Shown: positions 5,344-42,145 of the stretch, piece by piece
Layout of the letters: each line of letters starts with the position of its first letter
Numbering within the stretch: position 1 is the stretch's first letter
Source of the DNA: an uncultured Gammaproteobacteria bacterium
Lineage (GTDB): Bacteria > Patescibacteriota > Microgenomatia > UBA8517
Assembly (NCBI GenBank): GCA_964599625.1
Contig: CAZRGC010000005.1
Coordinates: 10,462-74,461, forward strand
DNA length: 64,000 nucleotides
Reading direction: 5' to 3'
Program-made: the position numbers and the translations under genes
Notes under the pieces: generated by a model
Databases searched by the model: none
What the model saw: the letters and a program-made list of their open reading frames with translations, nothing else
Told to the model about the DNA's origin: nothing

Positions 5344-6105
5344 CTACTTCTTACTTTCTGCGATCTTGGAAACTCTGCGGTTAAGGACGCTCTCGCGATA
5401 GAAGTCCTGGGCAAGCTTCTTTGCGCGTTCCAAGTCGAGCTTGGATGCACCATTTTCTGCCTTCCAGCGCTTTAAAAGCCCGTCTTCGTCGTCGCGGTTA
5501 AAATCCACCTGGCGGCTGAATTCGTTTAAGTATCCGAATATCGCCGGCAAGAAGATGCCCAGTACGCCGACAAGTGCTTCGGTAACCACCACTTCCTGCT
5601 TGAGTTTTTCGACGGCATTGACAGTCTTTTGGACCTCAAGCGCATCTTTCAAGCCTCCATTGCGGAGGGCCCAAATGGGAAGGTCTGATACCTTGACGCG
5701 AGCAGATGCGGCGATAGCGGCGAGCGGAATGGCGGCGGTCAATTGAAGAATTTTAAGGTTTGAGACCTCATCCTCAATCTCGCGGTACATGCTGGCAACA
5801 TGCAGGTTTTGCAGGTAGACCAAGAAATACTGAGCCATGCCAACCTTGGGAAGTTTGTATCCCAAAAGTCGCTCTGCCTTGTCCGCCCACTTCGCATCTT
5901 CCTCCAGAATGGTGCCCAGGTTCAACTCGCCTTTCACAGCCGACTTGATATCGAGCACCTCCAGGGCCTCTCCCAAAAGAGGATGAGCCTTATTGCGACG
6001 AACGAAGGCATCTGCCTCTTCCATCCCACGCTCACCGTCAATTGAGTAATCGAGTGCCTTACCCAAGCCCTTCAAGAGCTCTTCAAAGTTAATTTGCTTG
6101 GACAT
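5344..6105 (-). CDS. paralog family A member 3 (253 aa), unknown function
   Basis: motifs LLGYKLPKVGMAQYFLVYLQNLHVASM and AKKLAQDFYRESVLNRRVSKIAE. Confidence 0.65.
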   Translation of the reverse strand: MSKQINFEELLKGLGKALDYSIDGERGMEEADAFVRRNKAHPLLGEALEVLDIKSAVKGELNLGTILEEDAKWADKAERLLGYKLPKVGMAQYFLVYLQNLHVASMYREIEDEVSNLKILQLTAAIPLAAIAASARVKVSDLPIWALRNGGLKDALEVQKTVNAVEKLKQEVVVTEALVGVLGIFLPAIFGYLNEFSRQVDFNRDDEDGLLKRWKAENGASKLDLERAKKLAQDFYRESVLNRRVSKIAESKK

Positions 6106-6197
6106 TAGTCCTCCTAAACTAAAAGGTTCAAAACTAGCCTGGATATGATACTACATCAACAAAAATAAATAAACTATAAGATAATGATTAACAAAAA

Positions 6198-6593
6198 TTA
6201 CTTTGAAGCAATACTCTCCACGTCATCGGGAGAAAAAAAGGCATAAGTAGGCCCCCCTGCTCTATCAAACATCAAATAAGATTTTCCCTTGATAAACCCG
6301 ATCCTTGGCATAAGTTCGCGGGAACTCTCAAAAACAACATTTTTTCCTTCAAATATCCCGTGTTCATGGGCAAGTGACGATGTGATCGTGATTCCTTCTT
6401 CCCTGTACCTTTCAACTGCTGATGCTTTTATTTTTATAACAACCCCATCCTGTCTCACTCCCCACCCAAGCGGAGTTGCGATTTTTTTGGCAAATTCTTC
6501 TGAATTGGGATTTTTTTGCCAAAGTTTTAATCCGCTTTGTAAGTTCAGATTCAAAAGCCAAGTGTCAATATATTTTTCGTGAAGTCTTTCCAT
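6198..6593 (-). CDS. hypothetical protein (131 aa)
   Basis: ORF only. Confidence 0.5.
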   Translation of the reverse strand: MERLHEKYIDTWLLNLNLQSGLKLWQKNPNSEEFAKKIATPLGWGVRQDGVVIKIKASAVERYREEGITITSSLAHEHGIFEGKNVVFESSRELMPRIGFIKGKSYLMFDRAGGPTYAFFSPDDVESIASK

Positions 6594-6692
6594 TTTTAAC
6601 CAGAGTACAGTTTACAGATGCGGATTTGGGAAATCAAAGGCCAGTTTGGTATAATTCTGCCTTCGATCAGTACTTTCACAAAGGAGCATGTC

Positions 6693-7325
6693 ATGACCCC
6701 GTTAGAATATTTGGGTCTTTGGTTACTCTTAAACGTAATAATCTTGGTTCACGAGCTTGGCCACGCGGCAGCCGCGGGACTGGTTGGAAGTGATACAGAA
6801 AGCATCACGCTTGGATTTCCAACACTTTTTACCATCCCAATTTTTGGTATACCAACAAATGTTGGCCTCATTCCTCTTTTTGGTTTGGCTAAAATAAGCA
6901 ACTTTATGGACAGCGGACCAATCCGGAAGTTCATTATTGCTGTTGCGGGCCCCATTGCCAGTTTCGGACTTGCGCTACTGTGTTTCCAAATCGCAGGAGG
7001 AAATAGTCTTGTTCAGCAAATAGCTGCCAACAACTATTTCATACAAGAAACTTTGTCGTCTTTTTGGAACGACACACAAAATCCAATTCTCGAATTTACA
7101 AGCTTGTACGCGACCACAAAGGTTGCAACAGTTGCAGTGGCGGCTGGATGTATCAGCTTAATCTTGGCAATACTAAACATGCTCCCGGTCCCGATTCTCG
7201 ACGGCGGACGCGCCCTTTTTGCGCTTTTGGAAGCACTGTTTGGAGAGTGGGTAAGCAAAGTTCATACTGCGCTTATACCGATAAGCTTTTTTGCCCTGAT
7301 AATCTTCGAGATTATACGTTGGTGA
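6693..7325 (+). CDS. M50 family site-2 protease-like membrane metallopeptidase
   Basis: HELGH (HExxH) in a TM helix and LDGG motif (NMLPVPILDGGRALF); start set at ATG 6693 with SD AAGGAG 7 nt upstream (ORF track starts at 6618). Confidence 0.7.
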   Translation: MTPLEYLGLWLLLNVIILVHELGHAAAAGLVGSDTESITLGFPTLFTIPIFGIPTNVGLIPLFGLAKISNFMDSGPIRKFIIAVAGPIASFGLALLCFQIAGGNSLVQQIAANNYFIQETLSSFWNDTQNPILEFTSLYATTKVATVAVAAGCISLILAILNMLPVPILDGGRALFALLEALFGEWVSKVHTALIPISFFALIIFEIIRW

Positions 7326-7368
7326 TCGCAGTGATGCCATGGAAGAAATTTCGTGGCATCACATTTTT

Positions 7369-7842
7369 TCAAAACCTTACTGGTGGCTCTTTTCTTCGTT
7401 TTTCTTCGACAAATCTGTCAAAAAACATTTTTGAAAGGTTTGAATATTTCATGTTAAACCCGAACATTCGGGAAATTTCTACTTCACCCAAAGTTATTTC
7501 CTTTTGATACTTTTCCCTCTCAAACGGCCTGAGCGCGGCCAAAATAGCTTTTGGGTCTGTGTCCACCCTAGCTCTTTTAATAACCACTTCCACAATACTC
7601 CCTGCCTTAACTAGTCCTTTTGGAACATGGAAAATAACAGGACTGTCGTCGTTGTCCAACATCTTGCCAAAATCCAAAATCACCATGTCGAATCCGGGAA
7701 AATACTTTCTGTCGGAGAACGAGTCTAAAACCCTTATTGTCCCCGCGGTTTCAGGACGTCTAAACCACAAAGCTTCAGTAAAGTTGGCAAATGAGGCCTC
7801 CAAAAATGCCTCTGCTTTATCCAGGTTTCGTTCGATGCTCAT
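7369..7842 (-). CDS. hypothetical protein (157 aa)
   Basis: ORF, last gene of a 4-gene minus-strand operon led by the P-loop kinase. Confidence 0.5.
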   Translation of the reverse strand: MSIERNLDKAEAFLEASFANFTEALWFRRPETAGTIRVLDSFSDRKYFPGFDMVILDFGKMLDNDDSPVIFHVPKGLVKAGSIVEVVIKRARVDTDPKAILAALRPFEREKYQKEITLGEVEISRMFGFNMKYSNLSKMFFDRFVEEKRRKEPPVRF

Positions 7843-7854
7843 TTGCGAACTATA

Positions 7855-8289
7855 CTATCTGACTTCGAAGTTTTCAATTTCATGAGGCCTGAAAATTCCA
7901 ATTGTGCGCCAAACTTCACCATCTCTCTCTTCAAAAACGAAGTTGTATTTGTCTGTCAGCCTCATCTCACCATCGTGCCATTTTCTTATCCCAATCTTCA
8001 ACTTACCCACTTTTCCTTTTTTTGGTGCAAGGTTAAAAACAAAATAATCCCTTTCAACTTTTGCATACCGTCTTACGTCGTTAGCACCAACACTATTACG
8101 CGATTCCGAAAGACTCATTATTTCTCTCTTTATTCTAAAAGTCAGCCCTCTTCTTGTTAAATAGGCATCGTGCAAAACACTTGCCATTTGGTTGGCAGCA
8201 AAGTCATCATCGGGATTTGTTTGCCACGCAAAAAGTGCCTTTCGAAAATCGGCGTCTAGTCTATCAAATTGTTTTGGTCTTTCTTTCAC
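7855..8289 (-). CDS. hypothetical protein (144 aa)
   Basis: ORF; 4-nt overlap with upstream gene. Confidence 0.5.
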   Translation of the reverse strand: MKERPKQFDRLDADFRKALFAWQTNPDDDFAANQMASVLHDAYLTRRGLTFRIKREIMSLSESRNSVGANDVRRYAKVERDYFVFNLAPKKGKVGKLKIGIRKWHDGEMRLTDKYNFVFEERDGEVWRTIGIFRPHEIENFEVR

Positions 8290-8528
8290 TTGAGATTGTG
8301 ATCATCCAGTTCTGAGTGAGCTTTGATTAGTAGCTTCAGATCGTCTTCCGAAATAAGTTTCGATAAGTTTCTTTTGATTCCTTCCGTGATTTTTTGATCG
8401 TGTGGAGGGTTATGAAGAAAAATGCTGTGATAAATTGCAGCTGCCGCTTTCCTGCCAAGATTATTTATGCTTTGTTCCCGTCCAAAAAGCTCCGTAACAA
8501 ATCTCTTTTCAGAAATTCTTTCGGTCAT
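8286..8528 (-). CDS. hypothetical protein (80 aa)
   Basis: ORF. Confidence 0.4.
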   Translation of the reverse strand: MTERISEKRFVTELFGREQSINNLGRKAAAAIYHSIFLHNPPHDQKITEGIKRNLSKLISEDDLKLLIKAHSELDDHNLK

Positions 8529-8568
8529 TCAAAAAATATTAGACCCAAATGATGTTCAAATCAAATTT

Positions 8569-9219
8569 TTAATGTCTTTCGTGCCCGTGATGGTGGTGAT
8601 GGTGGTGTTTGTGTTCACTTTTAGAAGCTTCCGCCTCTTTGGAAACTCTCATTACACCAATACCCAACTCTAAAAAGGCCAAGTCTGCGTTTTGAATAAG
8701 TTCTTCTTTAGATCCTTCATTCCAAATTGTCCTATCAGCCAGCTCAAGACATTTGTCCACCTGCATTGCAGTGGAACCTTCTTCTCCTCTCTCTCTTTCA
8801 AGCATCTTTATAAATTCTTCAAATGTTTCGGGGTCTCCCGGGCGCTTCCTTTCTTTCATTCTTTTAAAAAGCGTTTCAGGACTTGCCGTGATTCCAATTA
8901 CTTTTGCATCAAAAAAGTCTTTAAGAAAAGTTATTTCATCGGGGTGTCTTATGCTGTCAATCACGACTAAATCGGCGTGTTTGAACTCATTTTTGGCAAC
9001 AGTCATTCTTGCCAAAATGTCAGCACCTTCTTTTGCTCTCATATCATCACCAAGGTTCTGAAGCACTTCGCGTTTATGTGACCATCCATATTTTGTAGCA
9101 ACTTCACGCAAGATGTCCGAAAGCGAAAAATAAGTAAATCCTTGGCCAACCAAATACTTGCTTATTTCCCCTTTTCCGCCGGACCCTGGTCCTGTAAAAC
9201 CAATTATCACTCTTTCCAT
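8569..9219 (-). CDS. P-loop NTPase, adenylate-kinase-like nucleotide kinase with native His-rich C-terminus
   Basis: Walker A GFTGPGSGGKGE resembles AK GxPGxGKGT; C-terminal KSEHKHHHHHHHGHERH. Confidence 0.55.
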   Translation of the reverse strand: MERVIIGFTGPGSGGKGEISKYLVGQGFTYFSLSDILREVATKYGWSHKREVLQNLGDDMRAKEGADILARMTVAKNEFKHADLVVIDSIRHPDEITFLKDFFDAKVIGITASPETLFKRMKERKRPGDPETFEEFIKMLERERGEEGSTAMQVDKCLELADRTIWNEGSKEELIQNADLAFLELGIGVMRVSKEAEASKSEHKHHHHHHHGHERH

Positions 9220-36804: not shown

Positions 36805-36897
36805 TGTCTTAAAAAATTAAATGGTTGTCAACAACTTAAAGTGTGGAAAAATACCAAGTTATAGGTTAAAATTCACTTTCGCACTTTAAGGAGGCAT

Positions 36898-37710
36898 ATG
36901 CCAACAATTACTTACAACTCATGGACCGAATGGGTTCTGGGCGAATATGTTGCCAAAACAAAAAAGCCGACGGATACCGAAATCGCAACAGTCAGACACC
37001 AGCTCAAAAAGCTTGAGCGGATGGAAGACAAACATTTCACCAAATCCGAAAACGCCGATGACGAAATCAGCGATGCAGAAGAAAAGCTTCGCGAAAAGCT
37101 CTTGGTGCTCGAGTCGGCCAAACGCGGCTACTCAGTTATCAATCTGGGTTTTCTTGGCGAAACTGACGAAAAAGGCTTCCCTTCCTACGCGGCCCACCAG
37201 GTAGATACCTACAGATTCCGAATGGAGATGGAAGCCCGCAACGAAAATCACAATTATCCGGGAAGTATCGGATGGGATAGATCAGATCCCAAAACGCCGG
37301 TACTGGAACGCTCGGATATCGATTTCCAAACAAGCAACTCAAGATATGCCCTTTCCGATGTTTATGCTCCTTCACTCAGAACACTGATGGCTATATCCGC
37401 GGAAAAACATGAATGGGGTTTGGTATTTTTGGAAGCCATCACCAAAGGCATCGCTTTCGGAAATTCAACCAGAACACAGATCAAAAAAGCAGAGCAGTAT
37501 TTTGACACTGTTTTTGTCATATACAACTCTTCCAAAATCTGGAAGCTCAATGAAAGTGTTGAATACTCCCCCAAAGTCGGCCTTGTGTTTGGTGTCAAAA
37601 ACAGCATACCGTTTTATGTTGGTTCTTTTGAGACAGTAAAAACAAGCGACTACATTCAAGCCGAACTCAAAAAACCAGCACCCAAAGTTGTTTCCAAAAA
37701 GTCCAAATAA
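36898..37710 (+). CDS. paralog family B member 1 (270 aa), unknown function
   Basis: C-terminal block FDTVFVIYNSSKIWKLN...VGLVFGV...YVGSFETV aligned with 37809..38513 and 40001..40732. Confidence 0.6.
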   Translation: MPTITYNSWTEWVLGEYVAKTKKPTDTEIATVRHQLKKLERMEDKHFTKSENADDEISDAEEKLREKLLVLESAKRGYSVINLGFLGETDEKGFPSYAAHQVDTYRFRMEMEARNENHNYPGSIGWDRSDPKTPVLERSDIDFQTSNSRYALSDVYAPSLRTLMAISAEKHEWGLVFLEAITKGIAFGNSTRTQIKKAEQYFDTVFVIYNSSKIWKLNESVEYSPKVGLVFGVKNSIPFYVGSFETVKTSDYIQAELKKPAPKVVSKKSK

Positions 37711-37712
37711 GC

Positions 37713-37754
37713 CAGTCCCGGCCGGGTAATAAAAACCTGTCCGGGATTTTTTTG
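37713..37754 (+). terminator. intrinsic terminator (CCCGGCCGGG...CCGGG + TTTTTTTGTG)
   Basis: hairpin + T8 right after stop. Confidence 0.6.
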
Positions 37755-37808
37755 TGATACAATACACATTCTGTCTTATAGTATTCGCACTTTACACAAG
37801 GAGCAGAT

Positions 37809-38513
37809 ATGCTTTTAACAGATGTTCTCCCAAAATACACTGTTATTTTGGACACCCGAGAGGATCATGAGCGAAGACTCAGAATCGAAGCAATTGAGCT
37901 TCGAATCAGAGAGCTCGAAACAGAAAAAAGCCGCCTAATGGGCTTCGAGGGTAAGAGTGGACGCGAAGAAGCAATAAAGCGTCTAACTGCTGACAAAAAG
38001 CACCTCGAGATGGCTCTTGCAGGATACCCGGAACTTTTGTCTCTCGACTTTTTATCGATGACAAGCGGACTACAACGTTTTCCTCAGTTCATGGTACTCA
38101 CCACATCAAGCAATGAGTTCACCATGGAGATCGAAAGACATAGCGTTGGTTTTATGCCGCAGCTTCCGGACGGGATCACCAAGCATTACAAACGAACCAT
38201 TGATCACATAAGGTGGCTTATCACCAAAGACTGGTACCCCTACGCCTCTGTAACACTCAGGGCCAGGTTCGAAGGTGAAATGTCAGACGAGGATCGCGAA
38301 GCGGTTATGAAGGCACAGCAAAGCAGACTTTTTGCAAACCTTTATGTGATCGCGGAAGCGCCTGTGTGGGACGTCAAAAAAGTTGCAAAGGTCAAAAAAG
38401 ACCCTGTGGTGATTGGTTGGGTGTCATCTACCAATCAGGCGTATATCGTCAGGGTTTTTCAGCCCACCGAAAAAGAACATTACGTGCTCACCCAAAACAC
38501 AAAGACAGCTTAA
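37809..38513 (+). CDS. paralog family B member 2 (234 aa), unknown function
   Basis: C-terminal FANLYVIAEAPVWDVKKVAKVKKDPVVIGWVSSTNQAYIVRVFQPTEKEHYVLTQ. Confidence 0.65.
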   Translation: MLLTDVLPKYTVILDTREDHERRLRIEAIELRIRELETEKSRLMGFEGKSGREEAIKRLTADKKHLEMALAGYPELLSLDFLSMTSGLQRFPQFMVLTTSSNEFTMEIERHSVGFMPQLPDGITKHYKRTIDHIRWLITKDWYPYASVTLRARFEGEMSDEDREAVMKAQQSRLFANLYVIAEAPVWDVKKVAKVKKDPVVIGWVSSTNQAYIVRVFQPTEKEHYVLTQNTKTA

Positions 38514-38518
38514 CACTG

Positions 38519-38557
38519 TCGGCCCGACGGAATCAAAAACCGCTCGGGCTTTTTTGT
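38519..38557 (+). terminator. intrinsic terminator (GCCCG...CGGGC + TTTTTTGTG)
   Basis: hairpin + T6. Confidence 0.6.
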
Positions 38558-38579
38558 GCCAATAAAAAATACGTAAGTG

Positions 38580-38999
38580 TTACTGCTGAACTGGAGTTTC
38601 TGCGGGAGGCACTTCCATAGGTGGAACCTGGGGAAGTTCCGAAGGAGACATGGCATCATGTGAATTGACTACAGGAGGTGTATCAGCTGCAGGTGTAGAC
38701 AAGTCCGCAACAGGTGCGGGGGTCTCAGCTTCCGGAACCGATGCTTCTGCCTCGGGTTCTTGTAAAACAGCTTCGTTCTCACCTGCGTAATTAGCCAAAA
38801 TTTCTTTGGCTGCTTCGTATTCCTGCGATTTACCCAACTCCTCTATCACAATAGAAAGCGCTTCAATATTGTTGGGTGTGGGGCTAGCAACAACGTCGTT
38901 TATCAAAGATAACAAGTCTTCTTTGTCGTCGTCGTCAAGATTTGGGTCAGTACTTACCTGATTCAAAAGTTGAGTTAATGTTTTTCCTAGTTCGTCCAT
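38580..38999 (-). CDS. acidic, Pro-rich hypothetical protein (139 aa)
   Basis: ORF; low-complexity C-terminus. Confidence 0.45.
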   Translation of the reverse strand: MDELGKTLTQLLNQVSTDPNLDDDDKEDLLSLINDVVASPTPNNIEALSIVIEELGKSQEYEAAKEILANYAGENEAVLQEPEAEASVPEAETPAPVADLSTPAADTPPVVNSHDAMSPSELPQVPPMEVPPAETPVQQ

Positions 39000-39002
39000 A
39001 GT

Positions 39003-39872
39003 TTATATAACGTTATTGTTTACTCTGTTGTCAAGAGTTTTTGCAGCGTCAGTCGCCAGGTTCTGGGCAACTTCTCCAACGTTACTCCCGTCTGTATTGA
39101 TCTGTGAAGCTGCTGCCTCAGCCATTCCAGGTACCACATTTTGTGCTGCATCAAGTCTACTGGCTGCATCAGCGATTGCGGTTGCGTTTTCGGCCTGTTG
39201 AGTGGCCAAGTCAGATTTCTGTCTGTTAAGTTCAACCGTCCTGGCATTATCCTGATCCTGCAAGCCTTGCTCCAAAGCACCTTTCATTGCAGTAGAACCT
39301 GCCAAAAGTCCATTGGCAAGTGATTTCCAAACATTGGCATTGTGCAATCTTCCTTCAGCACGTCTCGATTTACTTTCAGCATTACTCTTGTTCCAAGCGG
39401 CTCTCATCTTATCAATCCCAGCTACAATGACACTGTCAAACCAGGTGTTTTTGTCCTTAAGATTAACAGTCAAACCTTGTTGTTCAATATAAGCCTTTAT
39501 ATTAGCCGTTTGCTTCTCTGCGGTGATTCTTTTTCCTGCTTTTGCCTGAAGTGCATCAACAGTATTGAGACTCTTTTCTGCTGTTGCTGTTAAATCACCA
39601 GCCTTATCTTCGTTCCCCTTAGCCCACTTCTCCATCCTTCGTGCCTGCTTTTCGGCAATCTTACCCACAAACTTCATTGCCTTTTCCAAAACACCGCCAT
39701 CAGGACTTACTTTTTCAAGTCTCTTGTTAACCGCATCAAGCCGGGCTTTAAGACCTTCTTGTTTAGCGCTGGCATCACCCAAGTCCTGAGCTTCTTTATT
39801 TGCTGCAGGAACCCATGAAGATTCAACCATTCCTCTTCCAAACTCGGCAGTAGAATTGTCAGACATATTCAA
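39003..39872 (-). CDS. Ala/Gln/Lys-rich coiled-coil hypothetical protein (289 aa), GC-richer
   Basis: long predicted helical repeats; 3-nt gap to downstream ORF. Confidence 0.5.
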   Translation of the reverse strand: MNMSDNSTAEFGRGMVESSWVPAANKEAQDLGDASAKQEGLKARLDAVNKRLEKVSPDGGVLEKAMKFVGKIAEKQARRMEKWAKGNEDKAGDLTATAEKSLNTVDALQAKAGKRITAEKQTANIKAYIEQQGLTVNLKDKNTWFDSVIVAGIDKMRAAWNKSNAESKSRRAEGRLHNANVWKSLANGLLAGSTAMKGALEQGLQDQDNARTVELNRQKSDLATQQAENATAIADAASRLDAAQNVVPGMAEAAASQINTDGSNVGEVAQNLATDAAKTLDNRVNNNVI

Positions 39873-40000
39873 TAATTAATAACTCAACCAGTTTAGATTT
39901 TCACAAAGACTATTGTCAATAGGTATTCACTAAAAGTTGTCCAAATTGACTCCCTCTGTATAATATAGCCTCGCACATTTCACTTATCAAAGGAGTCACA

Positions 40001-40732
40001 ATGGAAACGCTTACGTTGGAAAATGACTTTCTCAAGTTGTTTGCACCATATGTGCAAGTAGCTCCCGAGCCGCCGGCCTTACTAAATGAGTTTCAGAAAG
40101 TCTCAGAACAACTTAACGAACTTCAAACAGCAAGAGGAAAGATGTTCCAGTTTGAAGACAAGACAGAGATCGATGCCAAAATTCGTCCGTTTTACCTCAG
40201 ACGAAGAGATCTTCTGTATGCTCAGGAAGGTTACACCGAGAAACTCAGTCCGGATGCCTTTAAGTTACGCCGCCAAGATGGCCTGCCAACATTCATGGTC
40301 ATAAATCTTGACGAAAGAGAGCGCATATTTGGTATTAGGGTAACTGATCCCAACAGCTACAACGTTGTGCCGTGGAGCCTGCCAGATATAATCAAAAATC
40401 AATTTGGTGATGTATCCAAGCTTCTCTATTCCAAAATGCGTTTCTGGCAGTCGGAAATAACAATTCACGCAGAACTTTCCGGTTACATGCCCGATCACGT
40501 TCGCCCGCTTGTACAAAAAGCCAAGGATGCCAAAGTTAGCGGCTCAAAAGCATTTGACAAGATGTTCATCATTGCCGAAGCTCCAGAATGGAAGTTCAAC
40601 CAGATGCCGGTCATCAAAACAGATCCGATCGTTGTTGGGTATGACTACTGGACTCAAAGGTTATACCTAATCACTGTCTACGATCCAACAGATCTGGAAA
40701 CATATCTGGCCGAACAATACACCCATTCATAA
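40001..40732 (+). CDS. paralog family B member 3 (243 aa), unknown function
   Basis: C-terminal FDKMFIIAEAPEWKFNQMPVIKTDPIVVGYDYWTQRLYLITVYDPTDLETYLAEQY. Confidence 0.65.
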   Translation: METLTLENDFLKLFAPYVQVAPEPPALLNEFQKVSEQLNELQTARGKMFQFEDKTEIDAKIRPFYLRRRDLLYAQEGYTEKLSPDAFKLRRQDGLPTFMVINLDERERIFGIRVTDPNSYNVVPWSLPDIIKNQFGDVSKLLYSKMRFWQSEITIHAELSGYMPDHVRPLVQKAKDAKVSGSKAFDKMFIIAEAPEWKFNQMPVIKTDPIVVGYDYWTQRLYLITVYDPTDLETYLAEQYTHS

Positions 40733-40739
40733 CTGCGAC

Positions 40740-40774
40740 CGCCCGCGAAGGCCATCCACTTTGCGGGTTTTTTA
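40740..40774 (+). terminator. intrinsic terminator (CCCGC...GCGGG + TTTTTT)
   Basis: hairpin + T6. Confidence 0.6.
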
Positions 40775-40785
40775 TTGGGGGAAAG

Positions 40786-41860: not shown

Positions 41861-42145
41861 TTACGCCGCAGGCACTCCTGTTGGAGGCGTTCCTCCCTGA
41901 GGAGCATCTCCTGCTGGTGCATCTACCGGAGCTGCCGGTACCGGCTCAGTTGGAGCTGGTTCTGGCATGGTTGGCATAACTGGCTCAGGTGTAGCAACGG
42001 GAGCTGCCGGCTCTGCCGGTACCCCTGGCATTACGGGAGCAGGTGTTCCTGTAGGAACAGCTGGCTCAGGCATTGCAGACGGAGCTGCTGGTGCGACTAC
42101 ACCAGGATCAGCTGCTGGTTGCGGATTTTGTGCATTAGGATCCAT
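41861..42145 (-). CDS. Pro/Ala-rich low-complexity protein (94 aa) between trxA and trxB
   Basis: strong SD GGAGGTGA 5 nt upstream of ATG; mirror plus-strand Gly/Ala ORF rejected. Confidence 0.5.
   Translation of the reverse strand: MDPNAQNPQPAADPGVVAPAAPSAMPEPAVPTGTPAPVMPGVPAEPAAPVATPEPVMPTMPEPAPTEPVPAAPVDAPAGDAPQGGTPPTGVPAA

Follow-up and report, generated by a model that had tools for sequence, protein, structure and literature searches.

Whole-unit gain, loss and replacement in an undescribed protein family between a DsbA-like gene and trxB in candidate-phyla bacteria, with further members in phage genomes

Introduction

Three clustered genes of no recognised family, here termed M1, M2 and M3, lie between a DsbA-like gene and trxB in a 64,000-nucleotide stretch of DNA from an uncultured bacterium (contig CAZRGC010000005.1; this whole stretch is hereafter called the window), and they raise the question of how they are related to each other, how they came to vary and what their products might do. 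An earlier note, made from this sequence alone, had described them as paralogs that share a C-terminal block, each followed by its own terminator, and had likened them to diversified accessory or defence-type gene sets. The gene content of the window is Patescibacteria-like, with a type IV pilus cluster and HD, DsbA-like, TrxB, Trx and Cu-ATPase genes. About half of the genes of candidate-phyla-radiation bacteria are without an assigned function and, to our knowledge, the phage biology of these bacteria is almost unknown. Here we show that whole transcription units are what evolution acts on at this locus, with duplication, deletion and swapping of units between near-clonal strains, and we consider what role the encoded proteins may have.

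Results

Relationship of M1, M2 and M3

All three open reading frames (ORFs) were confirmed, with products of 270, 234 and 243 aa for M1, M2 and M3, respectively. M2 and M3 match each other in BLASTP with an E value of 4e-25 (29% identity over ~219 aa, from residue 26 to the C-terminus). M1 matches M2 and M3 only marginally in pairwise BLASTP (E 0.006 and 0.11, respectively), and its membership in the family was established by independent profile evidence. A hidden Markov model (HMM) of 20 family members, built without M1, recognised M1 with 73.7 bits (E 2.5e-22, HMM positions 20-238), and the best of 500 shuffles of M1, which served as the control, reached 5.3 bits. Alignment of M1 to an 8-sequence family profile with hhalign gave an E value of 2.7e-5 over 188 columns, and BLASTP of M1 against its positional orthologue, the first gene of a tandem triplet in the related contig L001, gave an E value of 4e-12 over 236 aa. 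M1 is therefore a firm member of the family despite its marginal pairwise scores. The profile match runs through the full length (~220 of 243 positions) in all three proteins. Taken together, these sequence comparisons indicate that M1, M2 and M3 are paralogs over their full length. The similarity reported by the earlier note thus withstands formal alignment, pairwise for M2 and M3 and by profile for M1, while its restriction to a C-terminal block does not.

M2 and M3 are canonical members that carry all signature residues of the family, namely E52 (in GFE), E193 (in AEA), W197, D208-P209, G213 and E233, and the C-terminal motif drawn up in the earlier note fits both of them. It does not fit M1, in which most of the conserved residues have been replaced: IYNSSKIW stands for IAEAPxW, PKVGLVFG for DPxVxG and TVKTSDY for PTxxExY. 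In M3 numbering, these changes amount to E193N, D208V, P209G and E233S, with E52, W197 and G213 kept. M1 is a divergent paralog that, judged by profile alignment, has kept the full-length architecture and has lost three of the four conserved acidic residues.

An undescribed family without a solved structural relative

To define the family, we used an exhaustive profile search covering 1.84 billion cluster representatives (clusters at 50% identity). With a cut-off of E<=1e-3 it returned 838 representatives, of which 328 also passed E<=1e-10; nearly all were 225-310 aa long and aligned over their full length. Word-indexed searches found five, three and one close relatives only, and the exhaustive search was required for the rest. 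The family consensus contains GFE (in a loop), GYPE, W-R...LP-x-F, LP...Y-x-D, G-x-(I/M)-P-x-x-x-R, F-x-x-IFIIAEAPxW, DPLVVGW and FDPTPLExY. A strict division of the family into an A-type and a B-type was tried and dropped, as the motif classes grade into each other. M1, M2 and M3 contain neither cysteine nor a transmembrane segment and are soluble by prediction; the isoelectric point (pI) varies within the family and is often acidic.

In the AlphaFold2 model of full-length M3 (pLDDT 84, pTM 0.77), residues 24-75 form a helical hairpin, and an alpha/beta domain comes after it. The predicted hairpin, with helices at 24-47 and 55-75, agrees for M3 with the coiled-coil-like N-terminal regions of the earlier note. 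When the C-terminal domain was modelled alone with 43 aligned homologues, the confidence rose to a pLDDT of 96.1 and a pTM of 0.89, and the first half of this model has a beta-beta-beta-alpha order. Foldseek detected nothing in the PDB at E<0.001, and sequence-profile searches of the PDB gave no match, the best being an Aha1-like protein with an E value of 0.031.

Library searches were equally empty. Pfam-A had no match for M1-M3 or for any of 81 diverse relatives, NCBIfam and PHROG had none for the family at or near the curated cut-off, and PADLOC-DB v2 had none for M1-M3 at E<=0.1; the weak partial PADLOC matches were confined to neighbours (SspC, 5.6e-4 over 57 aa; ZorA, 0.09). The longest family members showed no fused domain. 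The family is thus as unrecognised as the earlier note had found it, and no profile of a well-known housekeeping domain turned up in Pfam, NCBIfam, PHROG or the PDB. We conclude that M1-M3 belong to an undescribed family with a predicted N-terminal helical hairpin and alpha/beta domain, which lacks a solved structural relative in the PDB, the only reference for the novelty of its fold. None of the searched libraries contains it, with the caveat that candidate-phyla bacteria have many families that are uncharacterised.

Each gene is laid out as an autonomous unit

A consensus scan placed a sigma-70-like, promoter-like -35/-10 pair 5' of each of M1, M2 and M3. A strong ribosome-binding site (RBS), AAGGAG, lies 6-8 nt 5' of each ATG, and each stop codon is followed by a GC-rich hairpin and 6-7 U, with folding energies of -18 to -20 kcal/mol. 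Energy alone does not distinguish the M3 hairpin from shuffles, 16 of 200 of which fold equally well, but it is the sole one of the three sites to be picked up by the consensus terminator scan. The individual terminators claimed by the earlier note are therefore present after all three genes. An Rfam scan of the window returned only three tRNAs, all distant from the M1-M3 locus.

The leaders share a short motif. TCGCACWTT has four matches in the window versus 1.05 expected by chance, and three of the four lie upstream of M1, M2 and M3, 19-30 nt 5' of the start codons and right behind the -10 boxes. The shorter form T[CT]GCAC is also found in the orthologue leaders of contigs L001, L004, L007 and L013, and within the window it occurs at most 60 nt upstream of only 6 of 76 crude gene calls. 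M1, M2 and M3 are each an autonomous unit composed of a -10 box, a TYGCAC leader, an RBS, a coding sequence and an intrinsic terminator. This monocistronic layout is not universal in the family, as copies 1 and 2 of L001 are 14 nt apart with no terminator between them. The leader motif may be a regulatory site, the initial transcribed sequence or merely duplicated promoter DNA, and T[CT]GCAC could act as a regulator site or as a recombination anchor.

Triplication of one ancestral gene

The interval between the DsbA-like gene and trxB holds one or more family members, both in the window and in contigs L001, L003-L005, L007, L015 and L031. On the copy-number check proposed in the earlier note, L007 and L015 carry a single copy at this site, and the window and L001 carry three. 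The single genes of L007 and L015 are ~30% identical to M3 and are likewise joined by two minus-strand genes, one acidic with a PQ-rich tail and one coiled-coil.

In a neighbour-joining tree, M2 and M3 each fall in a clade of their own with 100% bootstrap support and each clade holds a matching L001 gene, so the triplication took place before the L001 lineage split off. The first copy of L001 groups with the single-copy gene of L007 (100% bootstrap), so the M1 position is the ancestral one; M1 of the window itself forms a very long branch. The flanks of L001 are only ~70% identical to those of the window. These results show that the three copies stem from one ancestral gene at the DsbA-like/trxB site and that the triplication is older than the divergence of the L001 lineage.

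Whole units are replaced, gained and lost among close relatives

We compared five contigs from close relatives, L003, L004, L005, L030 and L031. L031 and L004 are 99.68% identical over 4,998 nt, a region that reaches from HD and DsbA through M1 and M2 to the pair of minus-strand genes that precede M3. Beyond the M3 -10 box this identity lasts for only 6 nt; its end coincides exactly with the leader motif, which is the 5' breakpoint of the swap. The M3 genes of these two strains share only 53% identity at the protein level and 57% at the DNA level. The contigs become alignable again in the last ~90 codons of M3, and their downstream genes are highly identical (94% across the 3' block). Because identity drops at the leader, stays at 53% in M3 and is high again downstream, the entire M3 transcription unit has been replaced. 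We also considered a mosaic M3 with a divergent N-terminal and a 92%-identical C-terminal part and rejected it, since the underlying blastn average is dominated by trxB and M3 is ~53% identical throughout.

A second, independently exchanged unit is formed by the two minus-strand genes, which were found as the earlier note described them. Between the window and L031, M3 is 89% identical in amino acids (dN/dS 0.08, dS 0.92), and the 139-aa and 289-aa gene products are 66% and 32% identical, respectively, versus 98-99.6% for DsbA, M1, M2 and TrxB; the 139-aa protein stands at 66% to both L031 and L004. It is because this pair diverges where M3 and the flanks remain similar that we regard it as exchanged on its own. 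M2 is missing from L003 and L005, and the junction lies inside a terminator. As the terminators of M1 and M2 are homologous (AAAAACC...CGGG-N-TTTTTTTGTG), the loss of M2 is best explained by unequal crossover between the duplicated terminators.

Synonymous divergence along the locus (window versus L031, L030 and L004; 35896-41841) was 0.006 for M1, 0.09 for M2, 0.17 for TrxB, 0.34 for DsbA and 0.92 for M3, which indicates a mosaic recombination history and frequent short-tract recombination in the population. Its spread between adjacent genes is ~150-fold. The dN/dS ratio of 0.02 for M2, like that of M3, points to purifying selection on each allele; M1 differs by four substitutions only, so its ratio is uninformative. 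When orthologues of M2 and of M3 were compared pairwise, the variability clustered in codons 76-160, the least conserved stretch being alignment columns 121-150, which correspond to a surface helix at about residues 129-144, and the C-terminal third with the signature motifs is the most conserved part.

Taken together, these comparisons show present-day gain, loss and replacement of whole units by homologous recombination at repeated leaders and terminators. The diversification suggested by the earlier note is thus evident in the presence or absence of M2, in the 53% allele swap of M3 and in the swap of the 139/289-aa pair. Its defence-type label finds no support: no defence model matched, no effector domain of an enzymatic kind is present, the genes alongside have housekeeping roles (DsbA-like, TrxB, Trx, Cu-ATPase and type IV pilus genes), and related genomes hold a single copy at the same site.

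Family members elsewhere on chromosomes

The sole taxonomically labelled match is to Candidatus Collierbacteria GW2011_GWB2_45_17 (Patescibacteria / Microgenomates group), and this locus, L006, was also the one match in scans of the GTDB species representatives with the patterns used. A metagenome scan revealed 10 loci with family members. Stand-alone members were found near NDK and toxin-antitoxin genes in L006 and L013, where AbiEii, a BrnT/CopG toxin-antitoxin pair and 23S_rRNA_IVP genes are among the genes close by, and between UvrA/UvrC and GroES/EL in L014. The family is thus a stand-alone chromosomal gene in Patescibacteria of the Microgenomates type that also occurs in phage genomes.

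Several details of these surroundings were recorded. The L006 member is flanked by a 342-aa ORF and an AbiEii-domain protein (6819-7847 (-) and 5722-6567 (+), respectively); by eye the 342-aa ORF resembles an IS30-type transposase, and it has no Pfam match. In L013, two paralogous membrane proteins of 243 and 264 aa with 42% identity (6785-8647 (-)) lie directly upstream of the member, and the BrnT/CopG pair and the 23S_rRNA_IVP genes lie downstream, a neighbourhood that suggests a variable region. Two adjacent family-profile matches in different frames at 2354-3379 of L024 are probably one family gene broken by a frameshift or a stop codon.

Phage-borne members

Phage proteins of the family match M3 directly in BLASTP with E values of 1e-9 to 1e-17. 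Phage contig L009 encodes a large terminase, DUF932 and three DUF6197 genes. L026, L028 and L029 belong to a single group of phages, in which the family member lies within a conserved module. On one strand, the module runs in the order of a helix-turn-helix (HTH)/sigma-r4 gene, a PD-(D/E)XK nuclease (PDDEXK_1), DUF6197, a 150-162 aa protein, one or two family members, a 160-aa protein and a 93-aa winged HTH protein. Only the core of this order is common to the three contigs, DUF6197 being absent from L028, and in all of them the family member lies at least two genes downstream of the nuclease. A RusA gene and a DnaA_C-like gene lie on the opposite strand of the module, and L026 also has a tail lysozyme. 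A tblastn search of GenBank isolate phages and PLSDB plasmids found no family match. The GC content is 50-55% for the phage contigs versus 37-47% for the bacterial loci.

In independent phage contigs, DUF6197 lies one or two genes from the family member (L009 8598-10140, three copies; L026 7069-7425; L029 8144-8524). L028 carries a tandem pair of family members of 225 and 239 aa at 5494-6902, and therefore the family gene has been duplicated independently in a phage. A further member sits in L027 (IMGVR_UViG_3300038463_000730), an IMG/VR contig of 434,688 bp in which EF-Tu, an AlkB-like 2OG-Fe(II) oxygenase, a serpin-like ORF and an R2K ATP-grasp gene surround it; this contig represents either a phage of huge size or a small genome that was misclassified.

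Discussion

A tentative role at the phage-host interface and its rivals

The descriptive part of our explanation, which comprises paralogy, the family, the autonomous units, the triplication, the swapping, selection and the degeneration of M1, is of high confidence. For the function, we tentatively favour a non-enzymatic binder whose site of action would be the phage-host interface, where it would affect DNA replication or events of the recombination stage, with phage pressure keeping alleles and copies; this functional part is well short of probable, and the explanation taken as a whole, description and function together, stands evenly balanced between right and wrong. Under this proposal, the conserved C-terminal third would provide a common function, the variable central helix and the hairpin would confer partner specificity, phages would exert a frequency-dependent selection that preserves several alleles and copies, and M1 would be a degenerate regulatory or decoy copy. 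A binder is preferred over an enzyme because the invariant positions are mostly Pro, Gly, Trp and Phe, with no Cys or His. A bolder and rather doubtful version sees in the family a new-fold, single-protein specificity module in phage-host conflict, either a phage-exclusion factor or a host target copied by phages. Such a module would be diversified in Patescibacteria by exchange of whole promoter-to-terminator cassettes at repeated leaders and terminators, with M1-M3 and their alleles recognising different phage or phage-homologue variants and TYGCAC serving as both regulatory site and recombination anchor.

Several points weigh against a phage-interface binder. Given the GC gap, the phages may not infect these hosts. 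E52, E193, D208 and E233, together with R168, are conserved and could form an active site, so that 'non-enzymatic' is not secure. The library scans found no defence or anti-defence model and no recognisable binding or catalytic domain in M1-M3, and the fold is new relative to the PDB only. In addition, the conserved single copy, the synteny and the strong purifying selection fit a housekeeping function equally well.

Such a function, as an accessory factor of Patescibacteria in DNA replication or repair, in the cell envelope or in division, with subfunctionalised paralogs and with phages carrying their own version, is nearly as likely as the favoured reading, although we would not call it probable. 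It would account for the one copy that L007 and L015 each have at this locus, for the stand-alone copies beside UvrA/UvrC and GroES/EL (L014) and NDK (L006, L013), for dN/dS values of 0.02-0.08 and for the hundreds of family representatives. It is harder to reconcile with the dispensability of M2 in L003 and L005, with an identity of only 53% between M3 alleles of strains whose upstream 5 kb agree at 99.7%, with the single match among the GTDB species representatives and the lack of any in isolate phages or plasmids, and with the lack of a conserved operon partner. Copy-number and allele variation of stand-alone units among near-clonal strains, homologues in phage genomes and the AbiEii, BrnT/CopG and 23S_rRNA_IVP neighbours in L006 and L013 speak for a novel single-gene anti-phage defence or superinfection-exclusion family, with paralogs and alleles as different specificities. 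M1-M3 resemble stand-alone phage-exclusion (Abi-like) or phage early accessory genes in being monocistronic at a strain-variable locus and in having homologues in phage early/replication modules beside DUF6197 and DUF932. Unlike such genes, however, they match nothing in PADLOC or PHROG, lack any recognisable effector domain, be it toxic or enzymatic (a nuclease, NTPase, TIR, Sir2 or membrane effector), and, within alleles, are vertically conserved under purifying selection; the window locus is not in a defence island, and its synteny is kept across genus-level distances. We therefore regard a dedicated defence family as improbable.

A phage-type recombination protein, a single-strand annealing protein or mediator domesticated by bacteria, is suggested by the phage contigs L026, L028 and L029, in which the member follows a PD-(D/E)XK nuclease in a module with RusA and DnaA_C-like genes. 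Like Rad52/Redbeta/Erf proteins, the family has a size of ~220-250 aa, phage copies near an exonuclease-type gene and, in the model of its C-terminal domain, a beta-beta-beta-alpha element in the first half. However, structure comparison detects no common fold, for which reason we rejected the idea, the pI is variable and often acidic, and the bacterial loci have no nuclease partner; this origin is quite unlikely. Less likely still is a role in thiol redox or copper homeostasis, as a partner of the neighbouring DsbA-like, TrxB, Trx, Cu-ATPase and CsoR genes. The position between the DsbA-like gene and trxB speaks for it, but M1, M2 and M3 have no Cys and hence no CxxC, which led us to reject it; moreover, other members occupy unrelated contexts and phages, and the transcription units are separate from, and convergent or divergent to, the redox-gene neighbours.

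Comparison with cassette arrays and flexible islands

Polymorphic toxin systems (CDI, Rhs, SUKH/Imm) carry arrays of diverged immunity or 'orphan' cassettes. M1-M3 are superficially similar to such arrays in being clustered, fast-diverging paralogs of a small soluble alpha+beta protein, with strain differences in copy number and alleles and with one degenerate copy, M1. In contrast to these arrays, they have no toxin gene or delivery domain nearby, match no Pfam immunity family, have their own promoter and terminator per gene and have syntenic single-copy orthologues in related genomes. An immunity array was rejected, as no toxin or delivery-domain gene (Rhs, CdiA, LXG etc.) was found in the window or in eight related loci, where the surrounding genes are DsbA-like, HD, TrxB, Trx, Cu-ATPase and pilus genes. 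A type II toxin-antitoxin module was rejected as well, since M1, M2 and M3 are each equipped with a promoter-like site and a terminator and no small same-strand partner is adjacent. In short, toxin-immunity, toxin-antitoxin and catalogued defence systems each have defining features, and the locus shows none of them.

A better parallel is offered by population genomics, in which replacement-type flexible genomic islands denote the replacement of alleles or cassettes at a fixed locus among near-identical strains. The M1-M3 locus behaves as a miniature island of this kind: it is a fixed chromosomal site with flanks that are 93-100% identical, it exchanges deeply divergent alleles (53% and 32% in amino acids) by homologous recombination, and the M2 unit is present or absent. 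It differs from such islands in its tiny units, which are single-gene, promoter-to-terminator and 0.8-1.4 kb long, in the lack of glycosyltransferase or surface-polysaccharide genes, and in breakpoints that lie at a repeated leader motif and repeated terminators. The locus is thus a clean example of cassette-level microdiversity.

The family defined here is sizeable and unannotated, with at least 838 clusters at 50% identity, a confidently predicted fold and no PDB relative, and it is common to candidate-phyla bacteria and phages. For an uncultured lineage, it offers a concrete candidate determinant of phage-host interaction or specificity, and interest in it would be high if the phage-specificity reading is true. 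If a housekeeping function proves true, the family would still be worthwhile for structure determination and for a new Pfam entry.

Coordinates and a neighbouring gene

Table 1 Features of the M1-M3 locus (positions refer to the window unless a contig is named)
Feature	Position	Strand	Description
M1	36898..37710	+	270 aa
M2	37809..38513	+	234 aa; canonical family member
M3	40001..40732	+	243 aa; canonical family member
M1 promoter-like site	36844..36872	+	TGGAAA-17-TAAAAT; consensus scan
M2 promoter-like site	37754..37782	+	GTGATA-17-TATAGT; consensus scan
M3 promoter-like site	39937..39964	+	TTGTCC-16-TATAAT; consensus scan
M1 leader motif	36879..36887	+	TCGCACTTT; between -10 box and RBS
M2 leader motif	37785..37793	+	TCGCACTTT; motif search
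M3 leader motif	39971..39979	+	TCGCACATT; 5' breakpoint of M3 cassette swap
M1 intrinsic terminator	37714..37753	+	hairpin + U7; dG -19.8, z -2.95; homologous to M2 terminator
M2 intrinsic terminator	38521..38555	+	hairpin + U6; z -2.75; crossover junction in strains without M2
M3 intrinsic terminator	40741..40774	+	10-bp stem + T-run; consensus terminator scan; z -1.40
139-aa protein	38580..38999	-	ORF; acidic helical N-terminus, Pro-rich tail; strain-variable unit
289-aa protein	39003..39872	-	ORF; Ala/Gln-rich, coiled-coil-like; strain-hypervariable
Acidic/PQ-tailed + coiled-coil gene pair	window 38580-39872 (-); L004 4377-5708; L031 3534-4871; L007 6784-7850; L015 9301-10292		

Between trxB and trx, the window contains a gene for a 94-aa protein composed nearly wholly of Pro, Ala, Val and Glu (41861-42145 (-)), and T[CT]GCAC also occurs ~45 nt upstream of this gene, directly behind its -10 box. 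The same gene is found at the same position in L001, L003, L007 and L030, and the L030 copy is 98.9% identical to that of the window.

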